Below are positions 9,086 through 61,469 of a stretch of 64,000 bases of DNA, in pieces. Position numbers and translations under genes: made by a program. The notes below the pieces were generated by a model that was not told the origin of the DNA, made no database searches, and saw only the letters and a list, made by a program, of their open reading frames with translations. The stretch lies in contig CM059432.1 of the NCBI GenBank assembly GCA_030390025.1, forward strand, positions 48,982,001 to 49,046,000. Reading direction: 5' to 3'. This stretch comes from Squalus acanthias (Eukaryota). Positions within the stretch are counted from its first letter, which is position 1. Each line of letters begins with the position of its first letter.

Positions 9086-12063
9086 TCCATTCCTTCATTC
9101 TAATAAGAATGAAACCGGACGGACCACCCGGCATCGACCTCGGCACTGGCTACTGACATGGCAATGGCACACCCAGCCCAGTCAACCCTGCAAAGTCCTC
9201 CTCACCAACATCTGGGGATTTGTGCCAAAATTGGGAGAGCTGTCCCACAGACTAGTCAAGCAACAGCCTGACATAGTCATACTCACAGAATCATACCTTT
9301 CAGCCAATGTCCCAAACTCCTCCATCACTATCCCTGGGTTTGTCCTATCCCACTGGCAGGACAGACCCTCCAGAGGTGGCGGCACAGTAGTATACAGTCG
9401 GGAGGGAATGGCCCTGGGAGTCCTCAACATTGACTCCGGACCCCATGAAGTCTCATGGCTTCAGGTCAAGCATGAGCAAGGAAACCTCCTGCTGATTACC
9501 ACCGACCGATCTCCCTCGGCTGATGAATCAGTACTCCTCCATGTTGAACACCACTTGGAAGAAGCACTGAGAGCAACAAGGGCACAGAATGTACTCTGGG
9601 TGGGGGACTTCAATGTCCATCACTAGGAGTGGCTCAGTAGCACCACTACTGACCGAGCTGGCCTGGTCCTGAAGGACATAACTGCCAGTCTGGGCCTACG
9701 ACAGGTGGTGAGAGAACCAACACGAGGGAAAAACCTACTTGGCCTTGTCCTCACCAATCTACCTGTCGCAGATGCATCTGTCCATGACAGCATTGGTAGC
9801 AGTGACCACCGCACAATCATTGTGGAGACGAAGTCCCGACTTCACACTGAGGACACCCTCCATCGTGTTGTGTGGCACTACTGCCGTGCTAAACGGGATA
9901 GATTCGGAACAGATCTAGCAGCTCAAAACTGGGCATCCATGAGGCGCTGTGGGCCATTCGCAGCAGCAGAATTGTATTCCACCACAATCTGTAAACACAT
10001 GGCCCGGCATATCCCTCACTCTACCATTACCACCAAGCCAGGGGACCAACCCTGGTTCAACAAGGAGTGTAGAAGAGCATTCCAGGAGCAGCACCAGGCA
10101 TACCTAAAAATGAGATGCCAACCTGGGGAAGCTGCAACACAGGATTACATGCATGCTAAAAAGCAGAAGCAGCATGCTATAGACAGGGCTAAGCAATCCC
10201 ACAATCAACGGATCAGATCAAAGCTCTGTAGTCTTGCTACATCCCGTTGTGAGTGGTGGTGGACCATTAAACAACTGACGGGAGGAGGAGGCTCCAAGAA
10301 CATCCCCATCCTCAATGATGGTGGAGCCCAGCTCGTGAGTGCAAAAGACAAGGCTGAAGCGTTTGCAACCAACTTCAGCCAGAAGTGCCGAGTGGATGAT
10401 CCATATCGGCCTACTCCTGAGGTCCCCACCATCACAGAATCCAGTCTTCAGCCAATTCAATTCACTCCACGTGATATCAAGAAACGGCTGAGCGCACTGG
10501 ATACAGCAAAGGCTGTGGGCCCCAACAACATCCTGGCTATCATGCTGAAGCTTGTGCTCCAGAACTAGCCGTGCCTCTAGCCAAGCTATTCCAGTACAGC
10601 TACAACACTGGCATCTATCCGACAATGTGGAAAACTGCCCGGGTATGTCCTGTCCACAAAAAGCAGGACAAATCCAACCCAGCCAATTACCGCCCCATCA
10701 GTCTACTCTCAATCATCAGCAAAGTGATGGAAGGTGTCATCGAAAGTGCTATCAAGTGGCACTTACTCACCAATAACCTGATCACTGATGCCCAGTTTGG
10801 GTTCCGCCAAGACCACTCGGCTCCCGACCTCATTACAGCCTTGGTCCAAACATGGACAAAGGAGCTGAATTCCAGAGGTGAGGTGAGAGTGACTGCCCTT
10901 GACTTCAAGGCAGCATTTGACCGAGTGTGGCATCAAGGAGCCCGAGTAAAACTGAAGTCAATGGGAATCAGGGGGAAAACGCTCCACTGGCTGGAGTCAT
11001 ATCTAGCACAAAGGAAGATGGTTGTGGTGGTTGAAGGTCAATCATCACAGCCACAGGACATCGCTGCAGGAGTTCCACAGGGCAGTGTCCTAGGCCCAAC
11101 CATCTTCAGCTGCTTCATCAGTGACCATCCCTCCAACATAAGGTCAGAAATGGGGATGTTCGCTGATGACTGCACAGTGTTCCGCACCATTCACAACTCC
11201 TCAGACAATGAAGCAGTCCATGCCCGCATGCAACAAGACCTGGACGACGTTCAGGCTTGGGCTGATAAGTGGCAGGTAACATTTGCGCCAGAGAAATGCC
11301 AGGCAATGACTATCTCCAACAATCAAGAGTCTAACCACTTCCCCTTGACATTCAATGGCATTACCATTGCTAAATCCCCCACTATCAACATCCTGGGGGT
11401 CACCATTAACCAGAAACTTAACTGGACCAGCCACATAAATACTGTGGCAACAATAGCAGGTCAGAGGCTAGGCATTCTGCGGCGAGTGTCTCACCTCCTG
11501 ACTCCCCAAAGCCTTTCCACCATCTACAAGGCACAAGTGAGGAGTGTGATGGAATACTCTCCACTTGCCTGGATGAGTGCAGCTCCAACAACACTCAAGA
11601 AGCTCAACACCATCCAGGACAAAGCAGCCCGCTTGATTTGCACCCCATCCACCATCTTAAACATTCACTCCCTCCACCACCGATGTACCGTGGCTGCAGT
11701 GTGTACCATCTACAAGATGCACTGCAGCAACTCGCCAAGGCTTCTTCGGCAGCACATCCCAAACCCGCAACCTCTTCCACCTAGAAGGACAAGGGCAGCA
11801 GGTGCATGGGAACACCATCACCTCCAAGTTCCCCTCCAAGTCACACGCCATCCTGACTTGGAAATATATTGCCGATCCTTCCTCGTCGCTGGGTCAAAAT
11901 CCTGGAACTCCCTCCCTAACAGCACTGTGGGACTACCATCACCACACGGACTGCAGCGGTTCAAGAATGCGGCTCACCACCACCTTCTCAAGGGCAACTA
12001 GAGATGGGCAATAAATGCTGGCATTGCCAGCGACGCCCAGATCCCATAAACAAATTTTTAAAA
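9086..12063 (+). mobile_element. LINE family A, near-complete ORF2 (APE endonuclease + RT), frameshifted
   Basis: ORFs 9036-9626 (ILTESYL, GGGTVVY, VGDFNVHH), 9705-10568 (SDH), 10571-12001 (RT motifs); 3' end GGGCAATAAATGCTGGC; head-to-tail with the previous copy. Confidence 0.95.
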
Positions 12064-26924: not shown

Positions 26925-26976
26925 AAAATGAGAAGTCGCACAACACCAGGTTATAGTCCAACAGTTTTATTTAAAA

Positions 26977-27013
26977 TTACAAGCTTTCGGAGCTCCGCTC
27001 CTTCTTCAGGTAA
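26977..27013 (-). ncRNA. Minimal hammerhead ribozyme motif (PLE family 1)
   Basis: Minus strand: UUAC-CUGAAGA-A-GGAGC-GGA-GCUCC-GAAAGCUU-GUAA. Confidence 0.8.
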
Positions 27014-27246
27014 AGGTACAGTGAGGGAATCTATTACACAGTATATATACACAGAGAACAATTTGTCTGCAGAGATACAATCTGTTAGGGAGGCATTACA
27101 TCAAAGACACATCAGAGTACAGCTAAGACAATGAGGTCGGTCACAGGGGGTCCAACGTGTCAAATGCTGCCGTCTGCAGTTAAGCTTTAAACTTTTTTTT
27201 TTGGTGTTTTTTTTAAAAAACTGTAAAGACAGACAACGATGTCGAG

Positions 27247-28881
27247 TCACGTTCTGTAGCGTGACATGAACCCGAGATCCCTATTGAAGCCGTCCTCATG
27301 GGTGCGGAACTTGGCTATCAGTTTCTGCTCGATGATTTTGCGTTGTCGTGTGTCTCGAAGGCCGCCTTGGAGAACGCTAACCCGCAGATCCGAGGCTGAA
27401 TGTCCTTGACTGCTGAAGTGTTCCCCGACTGGGAGGCAACCATCCTGCCTGGCAATTGTTGCGCGGTGTCCGTTCATACGTTGTCTCAGTGTCTGCATGG
27501 TCTCGCCGATGTACCATGCCGCGGTGCATTCTTTCCTGCAATGTATGAGGTAGACAACGTTGGCTGAGTCACATGAGTATGTACCATGTACCTGGTGGGT
27601 AGTGTCCTCAGGTGTGATGATGGTATCTGTGTTGATGATCTGGCATGTCTTGCAGAGGTTGCCGTGGCAGGGTTGTGTGGTGTCGTGGTCGCTGTTCTCC
27701 TGACAGCTGGGTAATTTGCTGCAAACGATGGTACTTTTGAGGTTAGGCGGCTGCTTGAAAGCGAGTAGTGGAGGCGTGGGGATGGCCTTAGCAAGGTGTT
27801 CATCATCATCGATGACATGTTGAAGGCTGCGAAGAACATGGCGTAGTTTCTCCGCTCCGGGGAAGTACTGGACGACGTAGGGTACTCTGTTGGTTGTGTC
27901 CCGTGTTCGCCTTCTGAGGAGGTCTATGCGGTTTTTCGCTGTGGCCCATCGGAACTGTCGATTGACGAGTCGAGCGTCATATCCCGTTCTTACGAGGGCG
28001 TCTTTCAGCGTCCGTAGGTGTCCAAAGCGTTCCTCCTCGTCTGAGCAGATCCTGTGTATTCGCAGGGCTTGTCCATAGGGGATGGCTTCTTTAACGTGGT
28101 TAGGGTGGAAGCTGGAGAAGTGGAGCATCGTGAGGTTGTCCGTGGGCTTGCGGTAGAGTGAAGTGCTGAGGTGTCCGTCTTTGATGGAGATTCGTGTGTC
28201 CAAGAATGAAACCGATTCTGAGGAGTAGTCCATGGTGAGTTTGATGGTGGGATGGAACCTGTTGATGTTATCGTGTAGTCCTTTCAGTGATCCTTCGCCA
28301 TGGGTCCAAAGGAAGAAGATGTCGTCGATATATCTGGTGTACAGCGTTGGTTGGAGGTCCTGTGCAGCGAAGTAGTCTTGCTCGAACTTGTGCATGAAGA
28401 TGTTGGCGTATTGGGGTGCGAATTTGGTCCCCATGGCTGTTCCGTGTGTTTGGGTAAAAAACTGGTTGTCGAAGGTGAAGACATTGTGGTCAAGGATGAA
28501 GCGGATGAGTTGTAGGATGGCGTCTGGAGATTGGCTGTTGTTGGTGTTGAGTACTGAGGCTGTCGCAGCGATGCCGTCATCGTGGGGGATATTGGTGTAG
28601 AGTGCCGATACGTCCATTGTGGCGAGGAGTGTTCCTGGTTCAACTGGTCCATGGGTGCTGAGTTTCTGCAAGAAGTCTGTAGTGTTGCGACAGAAGCTGG
28701 GGGTTCCCTGTACGATGGGTTTCAGGATGCCCTCGACGTACCCAGAGAGGTTCTCACACAGGGTTCCGTTGCCTGATACGATAGGACGTCCGGGTGTGTT
28801 GGCTTTGTGTATCTTTGGGAGGCAGTAGAAGTCTCCTACGCGGGGAGTACGTGGGATGAGAGCGCGTAGGATGTTTTGAAG
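27247..28881 (-). CDS. Uninterrupted but 5'-truncated PLE reverse transcriptase + GIY-YIG endonuclease
   Basis: FYCLPKIHK..PGRPIVS, ATMDVSALYTNI, QTHGTAMG, RYIDDIF, FLD, YRKPT, CHGNLCKTC linker, VVYLIHC...WYIGET...RMNGH...HFSSQGH. Confidence 0.93.
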   Translation of the reverse strand, partial: LQNILRALIPRTPRVGDFYCLPKIHKANTPGRPIVSGNGTLCENLSGYVEGILKPIVQGTPSFCRNTTDFLQKLSTHGPVEPGTLLATMDVSALYTNIPHDDGIAATASVLNTNNSQSPDAILQLIRFILDHNVFTFDNQFFTQTHGTAMGTKFAPQYANIFMHKFEQDYFAAQDLQPTLYTRYIDDIFFLWTHGEGSLKGLHDNINRFHPTIKLTMDYSSESVSFLDTRISIKDGHLSTSLYRKPTDNLTMLHFSSFHPNHVKEAIPYGQALRIHRICSDEEERFGHLRTLKDALVRTGYDARLVNRQFRWATAKNRIDLLRRRTRDTTNRVPYVVQYFPGAEKLRHVLRSLQHVIDDDEHLAKAIPTPPLLAFKQPPNLKSTIVCSKLPSCQENSDHDTTQPCHGNLCKTCQIINTDTIITPEDTTHQVHGTYSCDSANVVYLIHCRKECTAAWYIGETMQTLRQRMNGHRATIARQDGCLPVGEHFSSQGHSASDLRVSVLQGGLRDTRQRKIIEQKLIAKFRTHEDGFNRDLGFMSRYRT

Positions 28882-29241
28882 GTTCTCCAAGGTGGCCTTC
28901 GAGACACACGACAACGCAAAATCATCGAGCAGAAACTGATAGCCAAGTTCCGCACCCATGAGGACAGCCTCAATAGGGATCTCGGGTTCATGTCACACTA
29001 CAGAACGTGACTCGACATCGTTGTCTGTCTTTCCAGTTTTTAAAAAAATCACCAAAAAAAAAAGTTAAAAGCTTAACTGCAGACGGCAGCATTTGACACG
29101 TTGGACCCCCTGTGACCCACCTCATTGTCTTAGCTGTATCTGATGTGTCTTTGATGTAATGCCTCCCTAACAGATTGTATCTCTGCAGACACATTGCTCT
29201 CTGTGTATATATACTGTGTAATAGATTCCCTCACTGTACCT

Positions 29242-29278
29242 TTACCTGAAGAAGGAGCGGAGCTCCGAAAGCTTGTAA
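29242..29278 (+). ncRNA. Minimal hammerhead ribozyme motif (PLE family 1)
   Basis: UUAC-CUGAAGA-A-GGAGC-GGA-GCUCC-GAAAGCUU-GUAA. Confidence 0.8.
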
Positions 29279-29374
29279 TTTTAAATAAAACTGTTGGACT
29301 ATAACCTGGTGTTGTGCGACTTCTCATTTTTGTCCACCCCAGTCCAACACCGGCATCTCCGCTTCTTGGAATAG

Positions 29375-31854: not shown

Positions 31855-33268
31855 TGGAGACTTGTCCAGATAGCTTGCATCCCAGGTTGCTAAGGGAATT
31901 GGCGGAGGAGATAGTGGAAAGGCTTGCCATAATTTTTCAATTTTCGGCAGATGCGGGGGAAGTGCCTGAGGATTGGAAAGTGGCAAATGTGACACCATTG
32001 TTCAAGAAAGGGTGTAAGGACAATCCTAGTAACTACAGGCCGGTCAGTTTAATATCAGTGGTGGGTAAAGTTTTCGAAACAATAATCAAGGAAAAAAATT
32101 AACGGGCACTTGGAGAGATTTAAGTTAATTAAGGAGAGCCAACACGGATTTGTAAAAGGCAGATCGTGTTTGACTAATCTAATTGAATTTTTTGATGAAG
32201 TAACAGAGAGAATTGATGAAGGGAATGCAATGGATGTTGTCTACCTGGATTTTCGAAAGGCGTATGACAAAGTACCACATAGAAGGCTGGTTAACAAAAT
32301 TGAGGCTCATGGAATAGCTGGGTCAGTGGCAGCTTGGATAAGGAATTGGCTTAAGGACAGAAAACAGCGAGTTGTGGTAAATGGCTGTTTTTCAGACTGG
32401 AGGATGGTAGACAGTGGTGTTCCCCAAGGGTCAGTGCTGGGGCCACTGCTTTTTTTGATATATATAAATGACCTGGATATTGGAATACAGAGTAGAATTT
32501 CTAAATTTGCCGATGACACCAAACTTGGGGATGTGGCAAACAGTGATGATGATACCAATCGACTGCAACAGGACATAGAAAGCCTAGCAGAATGGGCAGA
32601 CAAGTGGCAGATGGAATTTAATACAGAGAAGTGTGAGGTGATGCATTTTGGCAGAAGGAACAGGGAGAGGCAATATACACTTAATGGCACAGTTTTAAAA
32701 AGAGTGCAGGGACAGAGGGACCTGGGAGTTAATGTGCATAGGTCCCTGAAGGTGGCGAGACATATTGAGAGAGTGGTCAACAAAGCATATGGGATCTTGG
32801 GCTTCATATATAGAGGTATTGAGTACAAAAGTAGAGAAGCTATGCTGAACCTTTATAAAGTGCTGGTTAGGCCACAACTGGAGTATTGCGTCCAGTTCTG
32901 GTCACCACACTTTAGGAAGGATGTGAAAGCCCTTGAGAGGGTGCAGGGGAGATTTACCTGAATGGTTCCGGGATGGGGGATCTTAGCTACAAGGACAGGT
33001 TGGAGAAGCTGGATTTGTTTTCATTAGAGCAAAGGAGGTTGAGGGGTGATTTGATAGAGGTGTACAAGATTATGACGGGTTTGGATAGGCTAGATAGGGA
33101 AAGGCTGTTCCCACTAGTTGATGGTACAAGGACTAGGGGACACAGATTTATGGTCTTGGGCAAGAGATACAGGGGGGCTGTGAGGAAAAACTTTTTTACA
33201 CAGCGAGTGGTAATGACCTGGAACTCGCTGCCGACGGAAGTGGTGGAAGCGGAGACACTCTATGACTC
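31855..33268 (+). mobile_element. CR1 RT domain fragment
   Basis: ORFs 31854-32102, 32110-32961 ([35 protein letters not shown]) and 32973-33272. Confidence 0.95.
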
Positions 33269-38700: not shown

Positions 38701-39357
38701 TAAATTCAGGACCCTAGTCTCTGAGTCAACTACTTCACTCTCCATCTTAATGAAGAATTCTATCATATTATGATCACTCCGACCCAAGGGGCCTCGCACA
38801 ACAAGATTGCTAATTAATCCTTTCTCATTACATAATACCCAGTCTTAGATGGCCTGATCTCTAATTGGTACCTCGACATATTGGTCCAGGAAACCATCCC
38901 GTATACACTCCAGGAATTCTCCTCCACAGTATTGTTACTAATTTGGTTAGCCCAATCTATATGTAGATTAAAGTCACCCATGATAACTGCTGTGCTCTTA
39001 TTGCACGGTTCTCTAATTTCCCTTTTAATGCCATCCCCAACCTCCGTATTACTGTTTGGGGGTCTATACACCACTCCCACTAACGTTTTCTGCCCCTTGG
39101 TATTTCTCAGTTCTGCCCACACAGATTCCACATCATCAGAGCTAATATCCTTCCTTACAATTGTGTTAATCCCCTCTTTAACCAGCAATGCTACCCCACC
39201 TCCTTTTCCTTTTTGCCTATCTTTCCTGAATATTGAATACCCCTGTATGTTGAGTTCCCAGCCTTGGTCACCCTGGAGCCATGTTTCCGTAATCCCAATC
39301 ATATCATATTCGTTTACCTCTATTTGCGCAGTTAATTCATCCACCTTATTACAAATG

Positions 39358-40232
39358 TGAGAAGTCACACAACACCAGGTTATAGTCCAACAGATTTATT
39401 TAAAATTACAAGCTTTCGGAGCTATCCTGCCCCTTCTTCAGGTAAAGTTATTGTGAGAGAATCTACCAGAATTCACAGAATATAAACACAGAGAAAATGC
39501 AGAGATTCAATCTTTCCCTACATCAAAGACACACTAAGAGCACAGCCAAGACAATGAGATGTGTCCCAGGGAGTCCAACGTGTCAAAACACCTGCTGGCT
39601 GCATATCCTCTCCATTTGGGTTTGTTTTTTGTGTTTGTTTCTTGTGTTTGTTTTTTTTTTAAAACTGGAAAGACAGGCAACGATGTCAAGTCACGTTCTG
39701 TAGCGTGACATGAACCCGATATCCCGATTGAGGCCGTCCTCATGAGTGCGGAACTTGGCTATCAGTTTCTGCTCCATGATTTTGCGTTGTCGTGTATCCC
39801 AAAGGCCGCCTTGGAGAACGCTAACCCGCAGATCCGAGGCTGAATGCCCTTGACTGCTGAAGTGTTCCCCGACTGGGAGGCAACCATCCTGCCTGGCGAT
39901 TGTTGCGCGGTGTCCGTTCATACGTTGTCTCAGTGTCTGCATGGTCTCGCCGATGTACCATGCTCTGGGGCATCCTTTACTGCAACGTATCAGTTAGACA
40001 ACGTTGGCCGAGTCACATGAGTATGTACCATGTACCTGGTGGGTAGTGTCCTCACGTGTGATGACGGTATCTGTGTTGATGATCTGGCATGTCTTGCAGA
40101 GGTTGCCGTGGCAGGGTTGTGTGGTGTCGTGGTCGCTGTTCTCCTGACAGCTGGGTAATTTGCTGCGAACGATGGTACTTTTGAGGTTAGGCGGCTGCTT
40201 GAAGGCGAGTAGTGGAGGCGTGGGAATGGCCA
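39358..40232 (-). mobile_element. Penelope-like element family 1, single-arm insertion D (no tail, no inversion)
   Basis: GIY-YIG region (ORFs 39691-39942, 39994-40254); 12-bp TSD TTATTACAAATG at 39346-39357 and 40233-40244. Confidence 0.95.
39406..39445 (-). ncRNA. Minimal hammerhead ribozyme motif (PLE family 1)
   Basis: Minus strand: UUAC-CUGAAGA-A-GGGGC-AGGAUA-GCUCC-GAAAGCUU-GUAA. Confidence 0.78.
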
Positions 40233-41193
40233 TTATTACAAATGCTCCTCGCATTAAGACACAAAGCCTTCAGGCTTGTTTTTTTAACGCTCTTAGACCT
40301 TTTAGAATTATTATTTACTGTGGCCACGTTTGATTTAAACCCTTGATTTCTCTGACTGCCACCTTTGTTTTTTTCCTTCCTGACTTTTGCTTCTATCCTT
40401 GTTTCCCTTTCCTCTGTCTCCCTGCACAGGTTCTCAACCCCCTGCCATTTTAGTTTAAACCCTCCCCCAGAGCACTAGCAATTATTGAGCATTACATTAC
40501 ATTTTAAAGTAGCGCGTCACGAAGCGTGGACAGATCAGTGGCATATTACAGTAGAGCCCTTCCAGGGTCTCCAAGCTCTTTCACTGTGTGCTGACTCCCT
40601 GCAAAGAGGCTTGATCTACATTGCCCAGTTTATTTGGTTGACCTGAACACTTGAGACAATGAGAAAATCGTGGATTTGCACAAATACTTAGTAGCATACT
40701 ATTTAAGTTGATTACAATATGATAATTAAGCTGACCTAAGGCTAAGACCTAGCGTATCCGCGTTCTGGCATAGTTTCTGGCCCTTCCAGCAAAATCTCAT
40801 TGAACTTATAGTGGGAGTACACCAGAAGGACCACAGTTTTCAAGCCAAAGGGTTTAAAGGCCAAACTATTGGCCTTGAAAGGAGGAACCAAGCTATTTTT
40901 GAACAAACGCTGTCTGTGTGACTTAATCAGCTAAATATATAATAACCAATTATCTTTGAATTCAACTGTCGGGTAAGTTATCAGAAAATAATCGAACTGA
41001 TTAGAATCTTCACAGGAAAAGTTAAGGTAGACTAGCTAGCTTCCATAGTCAGAAAGATTACAAGAAAGAAAAGTATTATGCGTATCTAAAAGTTATCTAT
41101 AAAGGCATAGCTTACAACAACAGCAACTTGCATTTATATAGCGCCCTTAACATAGTAAAACATCCCAAGGCACTTCACAGGAACGTTATCAAA

Positions 41194-44100
41194 CCTACTT
41201 GACCTCGTGCTCACCAATCTACCTGTCGCAGATGCATCTGTCCATGACAGCATTGGCAGCAGTGACCACCGCACAGTCATTGTGGAGACGAAGTCGAAGT
41301 CCCATCTTCACACTGAGGACACCCTCCATCGTGTTGTGTTGAACTACCACCGTGCTAAATGGGATAGATTCAGAACAGATCTAGCAGCTCAAAACTGGGC
41401 ATCCATGAGACGCTGTGGGCCATCAGCAGCAGCAGAATTGTATTCCACCACAATCTGTAACCTCATGGCCCGGCATATCCCTCACTCTACCATTATCACC
41501 AAGCCAGGAGACCAACCCTGGTTCAATAAGGAGTGTAGAAGAGCATGTTGGGAGCAGCACCAGGCATACCTAAAAATGAGGTGCCAACCTGGAGAAGCTG
41601 CAACACAGGACTACATGCATGCTAAAAAGTGGAAGCAGCATGCTATAGACAGGGCTAAGCGATCCCACAATCAACGGATCAGATCAAAGCTCTGCAGTCC
41701 TGCCACATCCAATCGTGAATGGTGGTGGACCATTAAACAGCTAATGGGAGGAGGAGGCTCCATGAATATTCCCATCCTCAATGATGGTGGAGCCCAGCAC
41801 GTGAGTGCAAAAGACAAGGCTGAAGCGTTTGCACGTGATATCAAGAAACGGCTGGGCCCACTGGATACAGCAAAGGCTATGGGCCCCGACAACATCCCGG
41901 CTATCGTGCTGAAGACTTGTGCTCCAGAACTAGCCGCGCCTCTAGCCAAGCTGTTCCAGTACAGCTACAACACTGGCATCTATCCGACAATGTGGAAAAC
42001 TGCGCAGGTGTGTCCTGTCCACAAAAAGCAGGACAAATCCACTCCGGCCAATTACCGCCCCATCAGTCTACTTTCAATCATCAGCAAAGTGATGGAAGGT
42101 GTCATCGACAGTGCTTTCAAACGGCACTTACTCACCAATAACCTGCTCACTGATGCCCAGTTTGGGTTCCGCCAAGACCACTCGGCTCCAGACTTCATTA
42201 CAACCTTGGTCCAAACATGGACAAAGGAACTGAATTCCAGAGGTGAGGTGAGAGTGACTGCCCTTGACATCAAGGCAGCATTTGACCGAGTGTGGCATGA
42301 AGGAGCCCTAGTAAAACTGAAGTCAATGGGAATCAGGGGGAAAACGCTCCACTCGCTGGAGTCATACCTAGCACAAAGGAAGATGGTTGTGGTGATTGAA
42401 GGTCAATCATCACAGCCCCAGGACATCGCTGCAGGAGTTCCTCAGGGGAGTGTCCTAGGCCCAACCATCTTAGAAACATAGAAACATAGAAGATAGGAGC
42501 AGGAGTAGGCCATTCGGCCCCTCGAGCCTGCTCCACCATTCGATGAGATCATGGCTGATCATCCAAACTCAGTACCTTGTACCTGCCTTCTCCCCATATC
42601 CCTCGATACCTTTAGCCTTAAGAAATATATCTAACTCATTCTTGAATATATTTAATGACTTGGCCTCAACTACCTTCTGTGGTAGAGAATTCCACAGGTT
42701 CACCACTCTCTGGGTGAAGAAATTCTTCCTCATTTCTGTCCTAAATGGCTTACCCCTTATCCTTAGACTGTGACCCCTGGTTCTGGACTCTCCGACCATC
42801 GGGAACATTCTTCCTGCATCTAGTTTGTCCAGACCTGTCAGAATTTTATATGTTTCGATGAGATCCCCTCTCATTCTTCTATACTCCAGCGAGTATAAGC
42901 CCAATCGACCCAATCTCTCCTCATATGTCATTCCTGCCATCCCAGGTATCAGCCTTGTGAATCTTCGCTGAACTCCTTCCATGGCAAGAACATCCTTCCT
43001 CAGATAAGGCGACCAAAACTGCACACAGTACTCAAGGTGTGGTCTCACCAAGGCCCTGTACAACTGCAGCAGGACATCCCTGTTCCTATACTCAAACCCT
43101 TTCGCTATGAAGGCCAACATACCATTTGCCTTCTTCACCGCCTGCTGCACCTGCATGCTTACTTTCAGCGACTGGTGCACAAGGACACCCAGGTCTCGTT
43201 GCACTTCCCCTTCTCCCAATCTATTGCCATTCAGATAATAATCTGCCTTCCTGTTTTTGACACCAAAGTGGATAACCTCGCACTTATCCACATTATATTG
43301 CATCTGCCACGCTTCTGCCCACTCACCCAACCTGTCCAAATCATCCTGGAGTTTCTCGGTATCCTCCTCGCAGCCCACACTCCCACCCAGCTTTGTGTCA
43401 TCTGCAAACTTGGAGATATTACATTTAGTTCCCTTATCTAGATCATTAATGTATATTGTGAATAGCTGGGGTCCAAGGACCAATCCCTGCGGTACCCCAC
43501 TAGTCACTGCTTGCCACTCGGAAAAAGACCCATTAATTCCTACTCTCTGCTTTCTGTCCGCCAACTAGTTCTCTATCCAAGTCAATACCTTGCCCCCAAT
43601 CCCATGTGCCTTAACTTTACACGCTAATCTCTTATGCGGGACCTTATCGAAAGCCTTTTGAAAGTCCAAATACACCACATCTACTGGTTCTCCCTTATCT
43701 ATTTTCCCAGTTACATCCTCAAAAAATTCCAGTAGATTAGTCAAGCACGATTTACCTTTTGTAAATCCATGTTGACTTTGTCCGATCCTGTCACTGTTTT
43801 TCAAGTGCTCAGCTATTATATCCTTTATAATGGACTCTAGCATTTTTCCCTAATACCGATGTCAGGCTTACCGGTCTGTAATTCCCCGCTTTCTCTCTAC
43901 CACCCTTTTTGAATAGTGGGGTAACATTAGCTACCCTCCAATCCATGGGTACAGTTCCAGATTCCATCGAATGTTGGAAGATGATCAGCAATGCATCTAC
44001 TATTTCTAGGCCCACTTCCTTAAGTACCCTAGGATGTAGATTATCAGGCCCTGGGGATTTATCGGCCTTCAATCCTGTCAATTTCCCTAACACCATTTCC

Positions 44101-46985: not shown

Positions 46986-47171
46986 GGTCTAGAAATTCGT
47001 CTCAGGCGGTGGCGCAAAACGGGCGGTATCGGATCGGCCGCCCGCTGTACGCAGTGCCCAATATTCAGATCCACTGACTGCAATAGAACTGACTATCAGG
47101 GGCTGCATACAGCGGGCGGCCGATCCGATTCCTCCCGTTTTGCACCACCGCCCGAGACGAATGTCAAGGCC
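46986..47171. mobile_element. 186-bp palindromic Harbinger-type MITE
   Basis: GGTCTAGAAATTCGTCTC...GAGACGAATGTCAAGGCC with ~70-bp inverted arms; TSD TTT. Confidence 0.88.
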
Positions 47172-48181
47172 TTTGACTGGTTATAACATAATTGTGGAAA
47201 AGACCTGCAAGAGTTAGTCTCATAGGAAGCTGTATTAACAGCAGTAGAGAAGCAGCCATTATCCTAGGAGACTTCTTCAGTAAATTTAGGCCAGGAAAGT
47301 CCCCAGAGCTGCTGCCACTCTGCCACCATAACTTAACCAGAAGTGTGACAGAAACCCCATTTACGCCTGTAATCAGTGTTTCCGTCGCACTTGTGGTGCA
47401 GTAATAGCAGCGGAGTGTGAGCAGCTTTGAGGAAATGCCTGACCTTGTTGTTTCAACTGTTTTCTACTTTGTCCCCCCGACACTGTCAAGTAACACATAT
47501 CCCTGCCCATTCTTCCAATGGTGCCAGGCACTCACATCAACTGAGTATGAGTGGTATCGGGGCTCATTTTGTTATACACACTTCAACCATACTATTTCAT
47601 CAAAATAAATCATAATCTCCTGATTTACTGACCCAAGTACCTGATTCAATAAAAATTCATACAAAAAGACAACTGGTTGCTGCTGAGTTACTAAATCAAG
47701 GCCTAGATTTTCCGCTCAGCCATTGTGCTGGTGGAAGTGCGACTGGGCGGGAGTTCTGCTGACTGTAAAGACGAACCCCTTGTCCTGGCTAATTTTCTGG
47801 GGTCAGGCTCATCAACAGGGTTGCAGAGATGGTTGTGGCTGGATTTGTAGTAGGCTGAATGCAAGAAACAAAACTGTATTTTTTTTTAAAGTGCTTTGGC
47901 CTGTAGTATCAATCACATTATAATTGACTGCATAGGCTTTCCGGCTAGTTACATTTTAAATCCCCTTCCGCTGCCCTACACACGGAACACACATGCATTG
48001 CTTGCGTTCAGTTTCGCTCGGACCCAAATGATGAGTATTTACATTGTGTGATGTACTTCTGTGATTTGGATGCCATGTGAATACACCTGCCCATAATTCG
48101 GAGATGCCGGTGTTGGACTGGGGTGGACAAAAATGAGAAGTCGCACAACACCAGGTTATAGTCCAACAGTTTTATTTGAAA

Positions 48182-48223
48182 TCACAAGCTTTCGGAGCTA
48201 TCGATCGCCCCTTCCTCAGTTGA
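48182..48223 (-). ncRNA. Minimal hammerhead motif with one stem I mismatch
   Basis: Minus strand: UCAA-CUGAGGA-A-GGGGC-GAUCGAUA-GCUCC-GAAAGCUU-GUGA. Confidence 0.65.
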
Positions 48224-48367
48224 AGTAAAGAGATACAGAATCGCCAAAGCATATATAGATAGAGAACAATGCATGTGTTACTTACAAAAGTAGTCGTCTG
48301 CTTTTGTAAGTAACACATGCATTGTTCTCTATCTATATATGCTTTGGCGATTCTGTATCTCTTTACT

Positions 48368-48409
48368 TCACCTGAGGAAGGGGCGATCGATAGCTCCGAA
48401 AGCTTGTGA
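48368..48409 (+). ncRNA. Minimal hammerhead ribozyme motif (PLE family 1)
   Basis: UCAC-CUGAGGA-A-GGGGC-GAUCGAUA-GCUCC-GAAAGCUU-GUGA. Confidence 0.78.
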
Positions 48410-49319
48410 TTTCAAATAAAACTGTTGGACTATAACCTGGTGTTGTGCGACTTCTCATTTCTGCCCATAATTGGCAGACCTATCCTATACTCCTGTCACT
48501 TCCGACAGAAAATCCAGGAAGTGTCAGGGGCAACTAAGGAGCTGGCAGAGTGATACCTGAAGAATTTTTCTGGCATTCCACTGGATTTAAACCTGCTCCA
48601 CGGTGTAACTCCTGAATTAAATCTAGGGTTATCATCCTGAAAATACTCTTGTGTTCAGTAACAAATTCAGTTTGTAGGTGTGTCGTGTGCATTCTGGGGG
48701 AGTTAATTAATGAATGGGAAATACAAAAGTCAAAAATTCACTGCTAACCAGTCAACTTTCCACGGGTGAACTTTGGACCTTTATTTATAGCACTCAGAAA
48801 TTCCAGACTTGCTATTACAGTGTTATGAAAATTTGTTAAACCCTTAACAAAATGAAATCAATGCATCTCTTCAAATACCTTGGTTTTATTTCTGGTTTCC
48901 TCTGCAATGTCTTTCTATTTTTTTCCTCATAGAGCAGCAGCATCATTGCAGACAGGGGTCTACTTTAATCTTCATTTTGCTTTGTCAGCAACGTAACAAA
49001 TTTGCATTTAATCCCCTTGGACATATCATTTCAGAAATATTCAATTCACACCAGAAAGTGCTACTGTCCCATCTCCTTTCCCAGCCAGTACTAGAATTTT
49101 GTCCCAGAGGTTTAATTCATTTGTGTATTTGTTCATGCTTAACAATGATCTCATTTGTAAACAAGTTATAGAAAACTATATTTCAACAAAAGCAATAAAA
49201 CGTTTAACAGCAATGTAAAAATAAGTGCAAATGTGAAAATTTTATACAGAATGTGCCAAACTGCACAGTGCTTTTGTCTTTCTCCGACGCGATTATATGC
49301 TGTAAGTGATTTTTTTAAG

Positions 49320-59100: not shown

Positions 59101-59345
59101 GCATTACACAAGGGAAATAGTTCCTATTTTTGCTGTAAATATGTGTTCACTGATTTTTGATAAATTCATTACATTTGTTTGGAATCTTTTGTGGTGTTTC
59201 TCATTTCAGCTTTGTGCCCAGGAGGACGCTGTGATATTCCATGACAGAAAGATGGTATGATGCGGAGATGCCGGTGTTGGACTGGGGTGGACAAAATTGA
59301 GAGGTCGCACAACACCAGGTTATAGTCCAACAGTTTTATTTTAAA

Positions 59346-59383
59346 TCACAAGCTTTCGGAGTTACAACTCCTTCGTCGGGTGA
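59346..59383 (-). ncRNA. Minimal hammerhead motif, variant core CCGACGA
   Basis: Minus strand: UCAC-CCGACGA-A-GGAGU-UGUA-ACUCC-GAAAGCUU-GUGA. Confidence 0.65.
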
Positions 59384-60158
59384 AGTGAGGAGATACAGAA
59401 TCGTCAAAGCATATATAGATAGAGAACAATGCATGTGTAACTTACAATTGCAGACAACTAAATTCAATCATCCTGACTGTTTATCTGCCGAGGTGTGATA
59501 AAGTTAATCAGGTCAGCCAGGAAGGTACCACATCAAAGACATAGCAAGATACAACTGAGACAATGAGGTGGAGTCGCATGGGGTCTAACGTGTCAAAAGC
59601 GGCCGTCTGTATGTAAAACGATTAACTTTAAAATTTTTACTTTTTTACTGGGAATCACATCTGTGAACAAGCCAACGACGACTCGAGTCCGGATCACGTC
59701 ATGTATCGTGACATAAACCCAAGATCCCGGTTGAGACCGTCTTCATGAGTGCGGAACTTGGCTATCAGTTTCTGCTCGATGATTTTGCGTAGTCGTGTTT
59801 TCCTAAGGCCGCCTTGGAGAACGCTTACCCGCAGATCCGAGGCTGAATGTCCTTGACTGCTGAAGTGTTCCCCGACTGGGAGGTAACAATCCTGCCTGGC
59901 GATTGTTGCGCGGTGCTCGTTCATACGTTGTCTCAGTGTCTGCATGGTCTCGCCGATGTACCATGCCGCGGTGCATTCTTTCCTGCAACGTATGAGGTAG
60001 ACAACGTTGGCCGAGTCACATGAGTATGTACCATGTACCTGGTGGGTAGTGTCCTCACGTGTGATGATGGTATCTGTGTTGATGATCTGGCATGTCTTGC
60101 AGAGTTTGCCGTGGCAGGGTTGTGTGGTGTCGTGGTCGCTGTTATCCTGAAAGCTGGG

Positions 60159-61051
60159 ACAACCTCACGATGCTCCACTTCTCCAGCTTCCACCCTAACC
60201 ACGTTAAAGAAGCCATCCCCTATGGACAAGCCCTGCGAATACACAGGATCTGCTCAGACGAGGAGGAACGCGATGGACACCTACGGACGCTGAAAAACGC
60301 CCTCGTAAGAATGGGATATGACGCTCGACTCATCGATCGACAGTTCCGACGGGCAAAAGCGAAAATTCGCATAGACCTCCTCAGAAGGCAAACACGGGAC
60401 ACAACCAACAGGCTACCCTACGTCGTCCAGTACTTCCCCGGAGCGGAGAAACTACGCCATGTTCTTCGCAGCCTTCAACATGTCATCGATGACGACAAAC
60501 ACCTCGCTAAGGCCATCCCCACGCCTCCACTACTTGCCTTCAAACAGCCGCCTAACCTCAGAAGTACCATCGTTCGCAGCAAATTACCCAGCTTTCAGGA
60601 TAACAGCGACCACGACACCACACAACCCTGCCACGGCAAACTCTGCAAGACATGCCAGATCATCAACACAGATACCATCATCACACGTGAGGACACTACC
60701 CACCAGGTACATGGTACATACTCATGTGACTCGGCCAACGTTGTCTACCTCATACGTTGCAGGAAAGAATGCACCGCGGCATGGTACATCGGCGAGACCA
60801 TGCAGACACTGAGACAACGTATGAACGAGCACCGCGCAACAATCGCCAGGCAGGATTGTTACCTCCCAGTCGGGGAACACTTCAGCAGTCAAGGACATTC
60901 AGCCTCGGATCTGCGGGTCAGCGTTCTCCAAGGCGGCCTTAGGAAAACACGACAACGCAAAATCATCGAGCAGAAACTGATAGCCAAGTTCCGCACTCAT
61001 GAAGACGGTCTCAACCGGGATCTTGGGTTTATGTCACGATACATGACGTGA
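60159..61051 (+). CDS. 5'-truncated PLE RT thumb + GIY-YIG, uninterrupted
   Basis: DNLTMLHFSSFHP...CHGKLCKTC...VVYLIRC...WYIGET...HEDGLNRDLG. Confidence 0.9.
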
Positions 61052-61361
61052 TCCGGACTCGAGTTGTCGTTGGCTTGTTCACAGATGTGATTCCCAGTAA
61101 AAAAGTAAAAATTTTAAAGTTAATCGTTTTACATACAGACGGCAGCTTTTGACACGTTAGACCCCATGTGACTCCACCTCATTGTCTCAGTTGTATCTTG
61201 CTATGTCTTTGATGTGGTACCTTCCTGGCTGACCTGATTAACTTTATCACACCTCGGCAGATAAACAGTCAGGATGATTGAATTTAGTTGTCTGCAATTG
61301 TAAGTTACACATGCATTGTTCTCTATCTATATATGCTTTGACGATTCTGTATCTCCTCACT

Positions 61362-61399
61362 TCACCCGACGAAGGAGTTGTAACTCCGAAAGCTTGTGA
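61362..61399 (+). ncRNA. Minimal hammerhead motif, variant core CCGACGA
   Basis: UCAC-CCGACGA-A-GGAGU-UGUA-ACUCC-GAAAGCUU-GUGA. Confidence 0.65.
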
Positions 61400-61469
61400 T
61401 TTAAAATAAAACTGTTGGACTATAACCTGGTGTTGTGCGACCTCTCAAGAAAGATGGTATGACAGGGAT

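Follow-up and report, generated by a model that had tools for sequence, protein, structure and literature searches.

In a 64-kb window, by which we mean the whole stretch of DNA analysed here, a 362-bp palindrome (positions 48099-48460, hereafter element C) is, on alignment to its relatives, the 3' end of a Penelope-like element (PLE) present twice, head to head. In our judgement it is rather probable that this is a young PLE 3'-end insertion, likely a one-off and extremely 5'-truncated, and that it was likely written by reverse transcriptase (RT) from both ends of a staggered cut. This type of insertion is already known for PLEs, and element C is an unusually compact example of it. The locus alone matters little, since it adds a single short, young copy to a type already described; what it offers is a data point on the way in which PLEs come to have inverted repeats and a tail on one side only.

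Anatomy of the palindrome and its relatives in the window

We established that the anatomy described in an earlier note on this DNA holds. Two 163-nt arms (left, 48131-48293; right, 48298-48460) pair with each other with two mismatches, at 48220 and 48291, and enclose a 4-nt apex loop, TCGT (48294-48297). One arm only is extended, by a 32-nt PLE tail that has no partner and forms the 3' extension on the minus strand (48099-48130). The element is flanked by an exact 12-bp direct repeat, CTGCCCATAATT, the left copy of the target-site duplication lying at 48087-48098 and the right copy at 48461-48472. The absence of coding sequence that had also been claimed was confirmed, the longest ATG frame inside the element having 48 codons. 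The computed folding energy is -308 kcal/mol (z = -40), a value equalled by 0 of 100 shuffles.

Comparison with the sister copies described below refines the boundary between the arms. Blastn and alignment against these copies assign 48131-48290 to a tail-bearing arm, in minus sense, that comprises 160 nt of the PLE 3' end (pLTR), and alignment to sister copy D assigns 48291-48460 to a tail-less arm, in plus sense, that comprises 170 nt of the same 3' end. The 5'-most piece of the tail-less arm is a 10-nt apex spacer (48291-48300, plus strand), which includes the loop. Since this spacer matches copy D at 9/10 letters in the plus sense versus 5/10 in the other orientation, the mismatch at 48291 is probably the junction and not a mutation, the spacer being part of the tail-less arm. 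The true build of element C would then probably be two 160-nt arms with one difference and a 10-nt spacer on the tail-less arm.

The PLE origin that had been proposed for the palindrome is borne out by three other loci in the window (copies A, B and D), which the arm of element C matches at 79-91% identity (blastn). Copy D is its nearest relative, and 149 of the 163 aligned letters of the tail-less arm are identical to it. Copy A (26925-29361, minus strand) is an inverted pair with a 12-bp duplication, in which a long tail-less arm carrying an RT and GIY-YIG-type frame (26925-28881) is followed by a short inverted tail-bearing arm (28882-29361). Copy D (59261-61447, plus strand) is an inverted pair with a 15-bp duplication, composed of an inverted tail-bearing arm (59263-60158), a longer tail-less arm (60157-61447) and a 428-nt spacer. 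Copy B (39358-40232, minus strand) is a single tail-less, 5'-truncated arm with a 12-bp duplication. A, C and D are alike in having inverted arms, one identical tail and a target duplication (12, 12 and 15 bp in A, C and D, respectively). Their 32-nt tails are letter-identical (3/3), and all four copies have their tail-less ends within about 5 nt of one another. The fold point differs from insertion to insertion, lying about 480 nt from the tail end in A, 896 nt in D and 192 nt in C. Element C closes the series A, D, C at its short end, and this place in the series fully explains its structure. At the tail-less end of copy B (39346-39365), the last letters of the target match, by eye, the continuation of the element, a hint of microhomology-aided priming.

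In copy A, a frame of 581 codons without a stop encodes an RT (Pfam RVT_1, E = 1.9e-9); the opening residues of this frame derive from the inverted arm. Downstream of the RT come a linker, CHGNLCKTC (residues 442-450), and then a GIY-YIG-type motif with two inner cysteines; the frames of copy D match Pfam GIY-YIG (PF01541) weakly (E = 9.4e-5 and 4.5e-4). The nearest proteins to the frame of copy A are uncharacterised shark proteins, with up to 91% identity over 93% of the frame. The GIY-YIG cysteine pattern occurs in 96 of 121 related proteins, and 95 of those 96 have a CX2-5CxxC-type linker. In the available text of PMC8557442, such a linker marks Neptune and Nematis and is missing in Penelope/Poseidon. 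Because copy A carries this linker, in the form CX4CxxC, we assign the family of element C by motif to a putative Neptune/Nematis type.

The features of endonuclease-positive (EN+) PLEs found in element C are the 32-nt tail, the inverted, 5'-truncated head-to-head pair, the duplication and a minimal hammerhead in the pLTR. Direct as well as inverted pLTRs, with a 31-bp tail carried by one of the inverted ones, and a short duplication make up the typical Penelope structure (PMC3846280); the same scheme is drawn for PLEs generally (PMC8557442), and one-sided tails of 30-40 nt have been described (PMC3846280, PMC8557442, PMC11167929). Palindromes have been noted at the inverted junction of rotifer PLEs (PMC3846280). 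The closest likeness is to Pen2/Pen2a of Adineta vaga, with their head-to-head inverted pLTR, a 31-32-nt tail at one end and a palindrome at the junction; their target duplication is 8-10 bp long, versus 12 bp in element C (PMC3846280). Element C differs from Pen2/Pen2a in having arms too short for coding sequence, a 10-nt spacer, a shark-like host and a family linker of Neptune/Nematis type.

The window is crowded with remains of retroelements. Pfam searches placed fragments of LINE-type RT and AP endonuclease at 10475-12001, 32086-32961, 38814-39395, 41159-42481 and 42569-43564; the 16 frames scanned, out of 61 listed in the window, yielded no recognisable host gene.

The empty site and the age of the insertion

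We aligned contigs of four sequencing runs (X1, X5, X6 and X9) to positions 47800-48800; 32 of the aligned pieces were listed, 43,254 more lying outside the listing. X5 bears the same species label and comes from another sample, about 55% of the run being covered, and X6 is a relative, a different organism. A 1972-nt contig of X5 joins 48086 directly to 48461, with one target copy and 374 nt absent. A 1783-nt contig of the relative, X6, likewise joins 48086 to 48461 with one target copy. The insertion of element C is real, young and polymorphic, since contigs of both X5 and X6 carry an empty site with one target copy. The same contigs prove the target duplication that had been claimed, each of them having one copy of the 12 bp. 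A young age had previously been argued from the instability of near-perfect palindromes; it is the empty-site contigs, and not that argument, that bear the claim out. In X9, two separate flank contigs, one reaching 48098 and the other starting from 48467, leave the site unbridged, and this run is not counted as empty.

Flank contigs of X1 reach into the element at both ends, by 22 letters at the tail and by 24 at the tail-less end, in inverted orientation. These junction pieces fall below our rule of 31 inside letters and X1 is possibly the assembly's own sample, so that the support they give is weaker. The X1 flank contigs differ from the window at 4/685 letters and the arms of element C from each other at 1/160, from which we infer an insertion age of about that of within-species haplotype differences. 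At 48019 and 48063 the contigs of X1, X5 and X6 (and of X9 at 48063) read another letter; the letters of the window at these two positions appear to be private alleles or assembly errors. A hairpin-prone target was considered and dropped: the best stem measures 5 bp at the empty site of element C and 4-5 bp at those of the three other copies.

Hammerhead motifs in the arms

The earlier note had reported one sense and one antisense hammerhead motif per strand, and these are present. A minimal type-I hammerhead lies in the tail-bearing arm (48182-48223, minus strand), where the stem I pair beside the core is broken by the change at 48220, and a second one, with an intact core, lies in the tail-less arm (48368-48409, plus strand). 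The latter has a 4-bp stem I, an extra A before stem II and a palindromic AAGCTT that replaces stem III. Both were identified by comparison with the published minimal motif (PMC4209133) and not by a curated model. No Rfam hammerhead matched at the gathering threshold anywhere in the 64-kb window, and a search of 48090-48480 to E = 10 returned 23 Rfam matches, none of them a hammerhead. These matches were mostly to generic miRNA-hairpin models, all below the cut-offs, and a miRNA identity was rejected. The seven arms of the window comprise six distinct sequences, in which 53 of 54 stem cells are paired, the sole unpaired cell being the change at 48220. Among these 6 related sequences, two-sided changes occur in 2 of the 9 base pairs of the motif, a count reached by 187 of 500 shuffles.

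The motifs share with the metazoan PLE hammerheads described in PMC4209133 a short stem I, an extra unpaired nucleotide before stem II, a G10.1-C11.1 pair and palindromic positions in place of stem III. In Schistosoma, pairs of minimal hammerheads on opposite strands lie about 100-700 bp apart (Cervera and De la Pena 2014, PMC4209133), and the two cores in element C are about 150 bp apart. The minimal motifs described there are mostly single and dispersed, and related to truncated PLEs; unlike them, one of the two motifs in element C has a broken stem I pair. A shark family is not named in the available text of PMC4209133. In copy D, the hammerheads (59340-59385, minus strand, and 61359-61404, plus strand) have C instead of U at core position 4, and a two-sided change in stem II accompanies it.

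Having a sense and an antisense hammerhead on each strand is unavoidable in any palindrome built from a hammerhead-bearing arm. As the arms are head to head, the antisense copy would be transcribed first on either strand, and the sense motif is consequently predicted to be paired. We calculated for the sense motif in a read-through transcript of either strand a mean unpaired probability of 0.0006, and forcing stem II with a free core is predicted to cost about 59 kcal/mol, again on either strand. Working ribozymes, as the words "a ribozyme motif on each strand" might suggest, find no support here, since the duplex is predicted to bury both motifs on each strand; with the sense motif predicted to be paired whichever strand is read, the phrase describes geometry and not function. 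The hammerheads would be passengers of the pLTR, predicted to be unable to fold in a read-through transcript. Minimal PLE hammerheads cleave poorly as monomers (PMC4209133), and the ribozyme of the anole PLE needs protein and is dispensable for insertion in vitro (PMC11167929).

Origin of the inverted arms

In all three inverted copies of the window the spacer lies on the tail-less arm, with a length of 10 nt in C, 428 nt in D and 1506 nt in A, a polarity counted in three copies that would arise by chance 1 time in 8. This polarity disfavours a simple fold-back of tail-primed cDNA. The protein of the anole PLE cuts and extends both target strands in vitro and is predicted to be a dimer, and reverse transcription starts at two RNA sites, the interval between which is the tail (PMC11167929). 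Taking the spacer polarity together with the two start sites and the extension of both strands in the anole element, we infer that priming occurred from both cut ends. The near-constant tail-less ends of the four copies and the identical tails of A, C and D favour the same reading. The endonuclease of an autonomous PLE copy would nick the target at positions 12 nt apart. Of the two 3' ends, the left one would then prime at the start site at the end of the tail and the right one at the pre-tail start site. Synthesis would halt early, with the tail-less strand extending 10 nt further; a short apex pairing would join both products, and fill-in would create the 12-bp duplication. The joining could follow one of two sub-routes: either two long cDNAs would anneal at their tips, or the tail-less cDNA would fold back and be captured by a short tail-primed cDNA. 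If the two RTs travelled on one RNA, a tail-primed RT trailing the other could never overtake it. Element C is predicted to be a dead end.

In the PAc element (Poseidon of Anolis carolinensis; Frangieh et al. [quoted passage not shown] Element C resembles PAc in having a predicted 9-bp stem between tail and pre-tail, and the target of element C ends in AATT; it differs from PAc in that its family falls, by the linker motif, in a different clade. The two-ended model leans on in vitro data from the Poseidon clade for a family that is here of Neptune/Nematis type. It is also weakened by the statement in PMC8557442 that PLE tails occur at either end. The main text of PMC11167929 does not link the start sites to inverted insertions, and uses "inverted" once, for a blocking group; a link between the two RT start sites and inverted insertions was not found stated in the literature searched, supplements aside. 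The predicted 9-bp stem between tail and pre-tail, which lies at 48106-48169 (minus strand) in element C and recurs in A and D, would have the tail-less end point in its loop.

Should the spacer lie on the tail-less arm genome-wide, the two start sites seen in vitro would map to the two ends of the staggered cut; with the start sites so placed, the tail and the inversion would both be explained. The family is very abundant, 13,001 of the 18.7 million X1 contigs falling on the 1-kb stretch, and an abundant polymorphic family would allow the spacer rule to be counted over many insertions with empty sites.

An alternative that we regard as unlikely, although it survives best among those considered, is that a single cDNA or antisense RNA folded back and primed itself, so that the second arm copied the first with no priming from the second end. 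The junction palindromes of rotifer PLEs have been read as self-priming on an antisense template (PMC3846280), and the near-identity of the arms, which differ at 1/160 positions in C, 5/862 in D and 12/452 in A, favours the same explanation. The fold junctions of other contigs bear on it as well. Among the contigs aligned to 47800-48800 there are 282 joints, possibly including library chimeras, of which 15 were displayed. Both arms are only 30-94 nt long in 13 of the 15 joints displayed (of 282), and the earlier suggestion that element C is the shortest case of a fold-back mechanism is probably wrong for that reason, with chimeras possible. Fourteen of the 15 stop short of the tail and fit either strand of the palindrome, and were left out of the count of arm polarity; the remaining one, a joint from 48125 to 48408, links a tail-only arm with a longer tail-less arm and so speaks for two-ended priming. 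Joints from 48198 to 48392/48393 were found in 1, 4 and 13 contigs of X1, X5 and X9, respectively, with differing loop letters, and centre exactly on the stem II hairpin of the hammerhead. Their recurrence with varied loop letters in three runs speaks for self-priming; either the family folds at this point again and again, or the joints are library chimeras. Against self-priming, a fold-back of tail-primed cDNA would put the loop on the tail-bearing arm, whereas it is on the tail-less arm in 3/3 copies. A tail-less cDNA, for its part, has no template for the tail and would need a second priming anyway, which amounts to the second sub-route of the two-ended model.

Priming from both cut ends remains the reading that we prefer. 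A loose end of X1 contigs at 48286 (3 contigs, agreement 0.78) hints that the parent already had a short apex hairpin, with up to 5 nt of microhomology.

It is still less probable, to the point of being doubtful, that element C belongs to a non-autonomous family of hairpins (a "retro-MITE"), whose members would arise when the PLE protein puts transcripts of the whole 362-nt palindrome back into the genome at many sites. In its favour, a minus-strand transcript is predicted to leave the tail single-stranded at its 3' end; PLE ends are able to move other sequence in trans (PMC3846280), and there are PLE derivatives that are non-autonomous (PMC8557442; bioRxiv 10.64898/2026.07.22.740005). The apex is also deep in X1 and X5 contigs, although the parent family alone would explain this depth. 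Several points argue against such a family. Firstly, the 30-nt apex occurs a single time in the 64-kb window with up to 3 mismatches allowed, and the four copies of the window differ in fold point or have none. Secondly, the 160-bp duplex is predicted to bury the hammerhead and the pre-tail start site. Thirdly, nothing was seen in the element by which a 5' end could be fixed precisely at the boundary of the tail-less arm. Fourthly, a place at the short end of the A-D-C series accounts for the structure in full. No PLE-reinserted family of dsRNA hairpins of this kind was found in the literature searched. An exact scan for the apex in metagenome contigs gave 0 hits, as did a conserved 24-letter word of the family in metagenome, viral and prokaryotic collections; the host is unlikely to be represented there, and these zeros carry no weight either way. 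The earlier note proposed a search for other loci with the same apex. Since the element has a natural hairpin at which such junctions are found repeatedly, a shared apex alone is no proof of a family, and such a search would mislead, as the same apex can arise independently. Were the hairpin family true, it would be a retro-transposing counterpart of MITEs and could seed silencing RNAs against the whole Penelope family. Silencing through siRNA or ADAR would need transcription of the locus of element C, and the same dsRNA would come from inverted copies with longer arms, such as D.

We hold it to be very improbable that the palindrome was made or shortened in the assembly by fold-back reads. 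Fold-back chimeras at hairpins are a known library artefact. None of the 32 contig pieces listed spans the apex or the whole element; the lack of cover in X6 and X9 over about 48208-48343 was given no weight as evidence. Such an artefact is at odds with the clean 12-bp duplication and its matching empty allele, and with the read-derived contigs that enter both ends in opposite orientations. The arms, moreover, are told apart by the change at 48220, and each stops at a point of its own that is typical of the family.

We give next to no probability to a class II MITE, for which a DNA transposase would recognise the terminal inverted repeats: element C resembles MITEs (PMC5172404) in being small, non-coding and palindromic, with inverted repeats and a target duplication, but it lacks symmetric termini, its left terminus being a 32-nt tail without an inverted partner, and it consists throughout of retroelement sequence, all of it PLE 3' end. 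This asymmetry and these retroelement ends exclude the class II reading. The likeness to a MITE put forward earlier is likewise unsupported, given the single tail and a duplication like those of the RT-bearing, coding PLE copies (12, 12 and 15 bp). Non-LTR retrozymes (bioRxiv 10.64898/2026.07.22.740005) share with element C its non-coding, hammerhead-bearing and PLE-related nature. They are tandem direct repeats with ribozymes on the same strand, whereas element C is an inverted pair predicted to bury its ribozymes, with one motif per strand, and this identity was rejected.

A second closely spaced inverted repeat lies at 46986-47171. It is G+C-rich and unrelated to the PLE, and its arms are about 74 nt long, 64 of 73 aligned letters being complementary between them. 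By its structure, this repeat looks more like a true MITE-type element than element C does.
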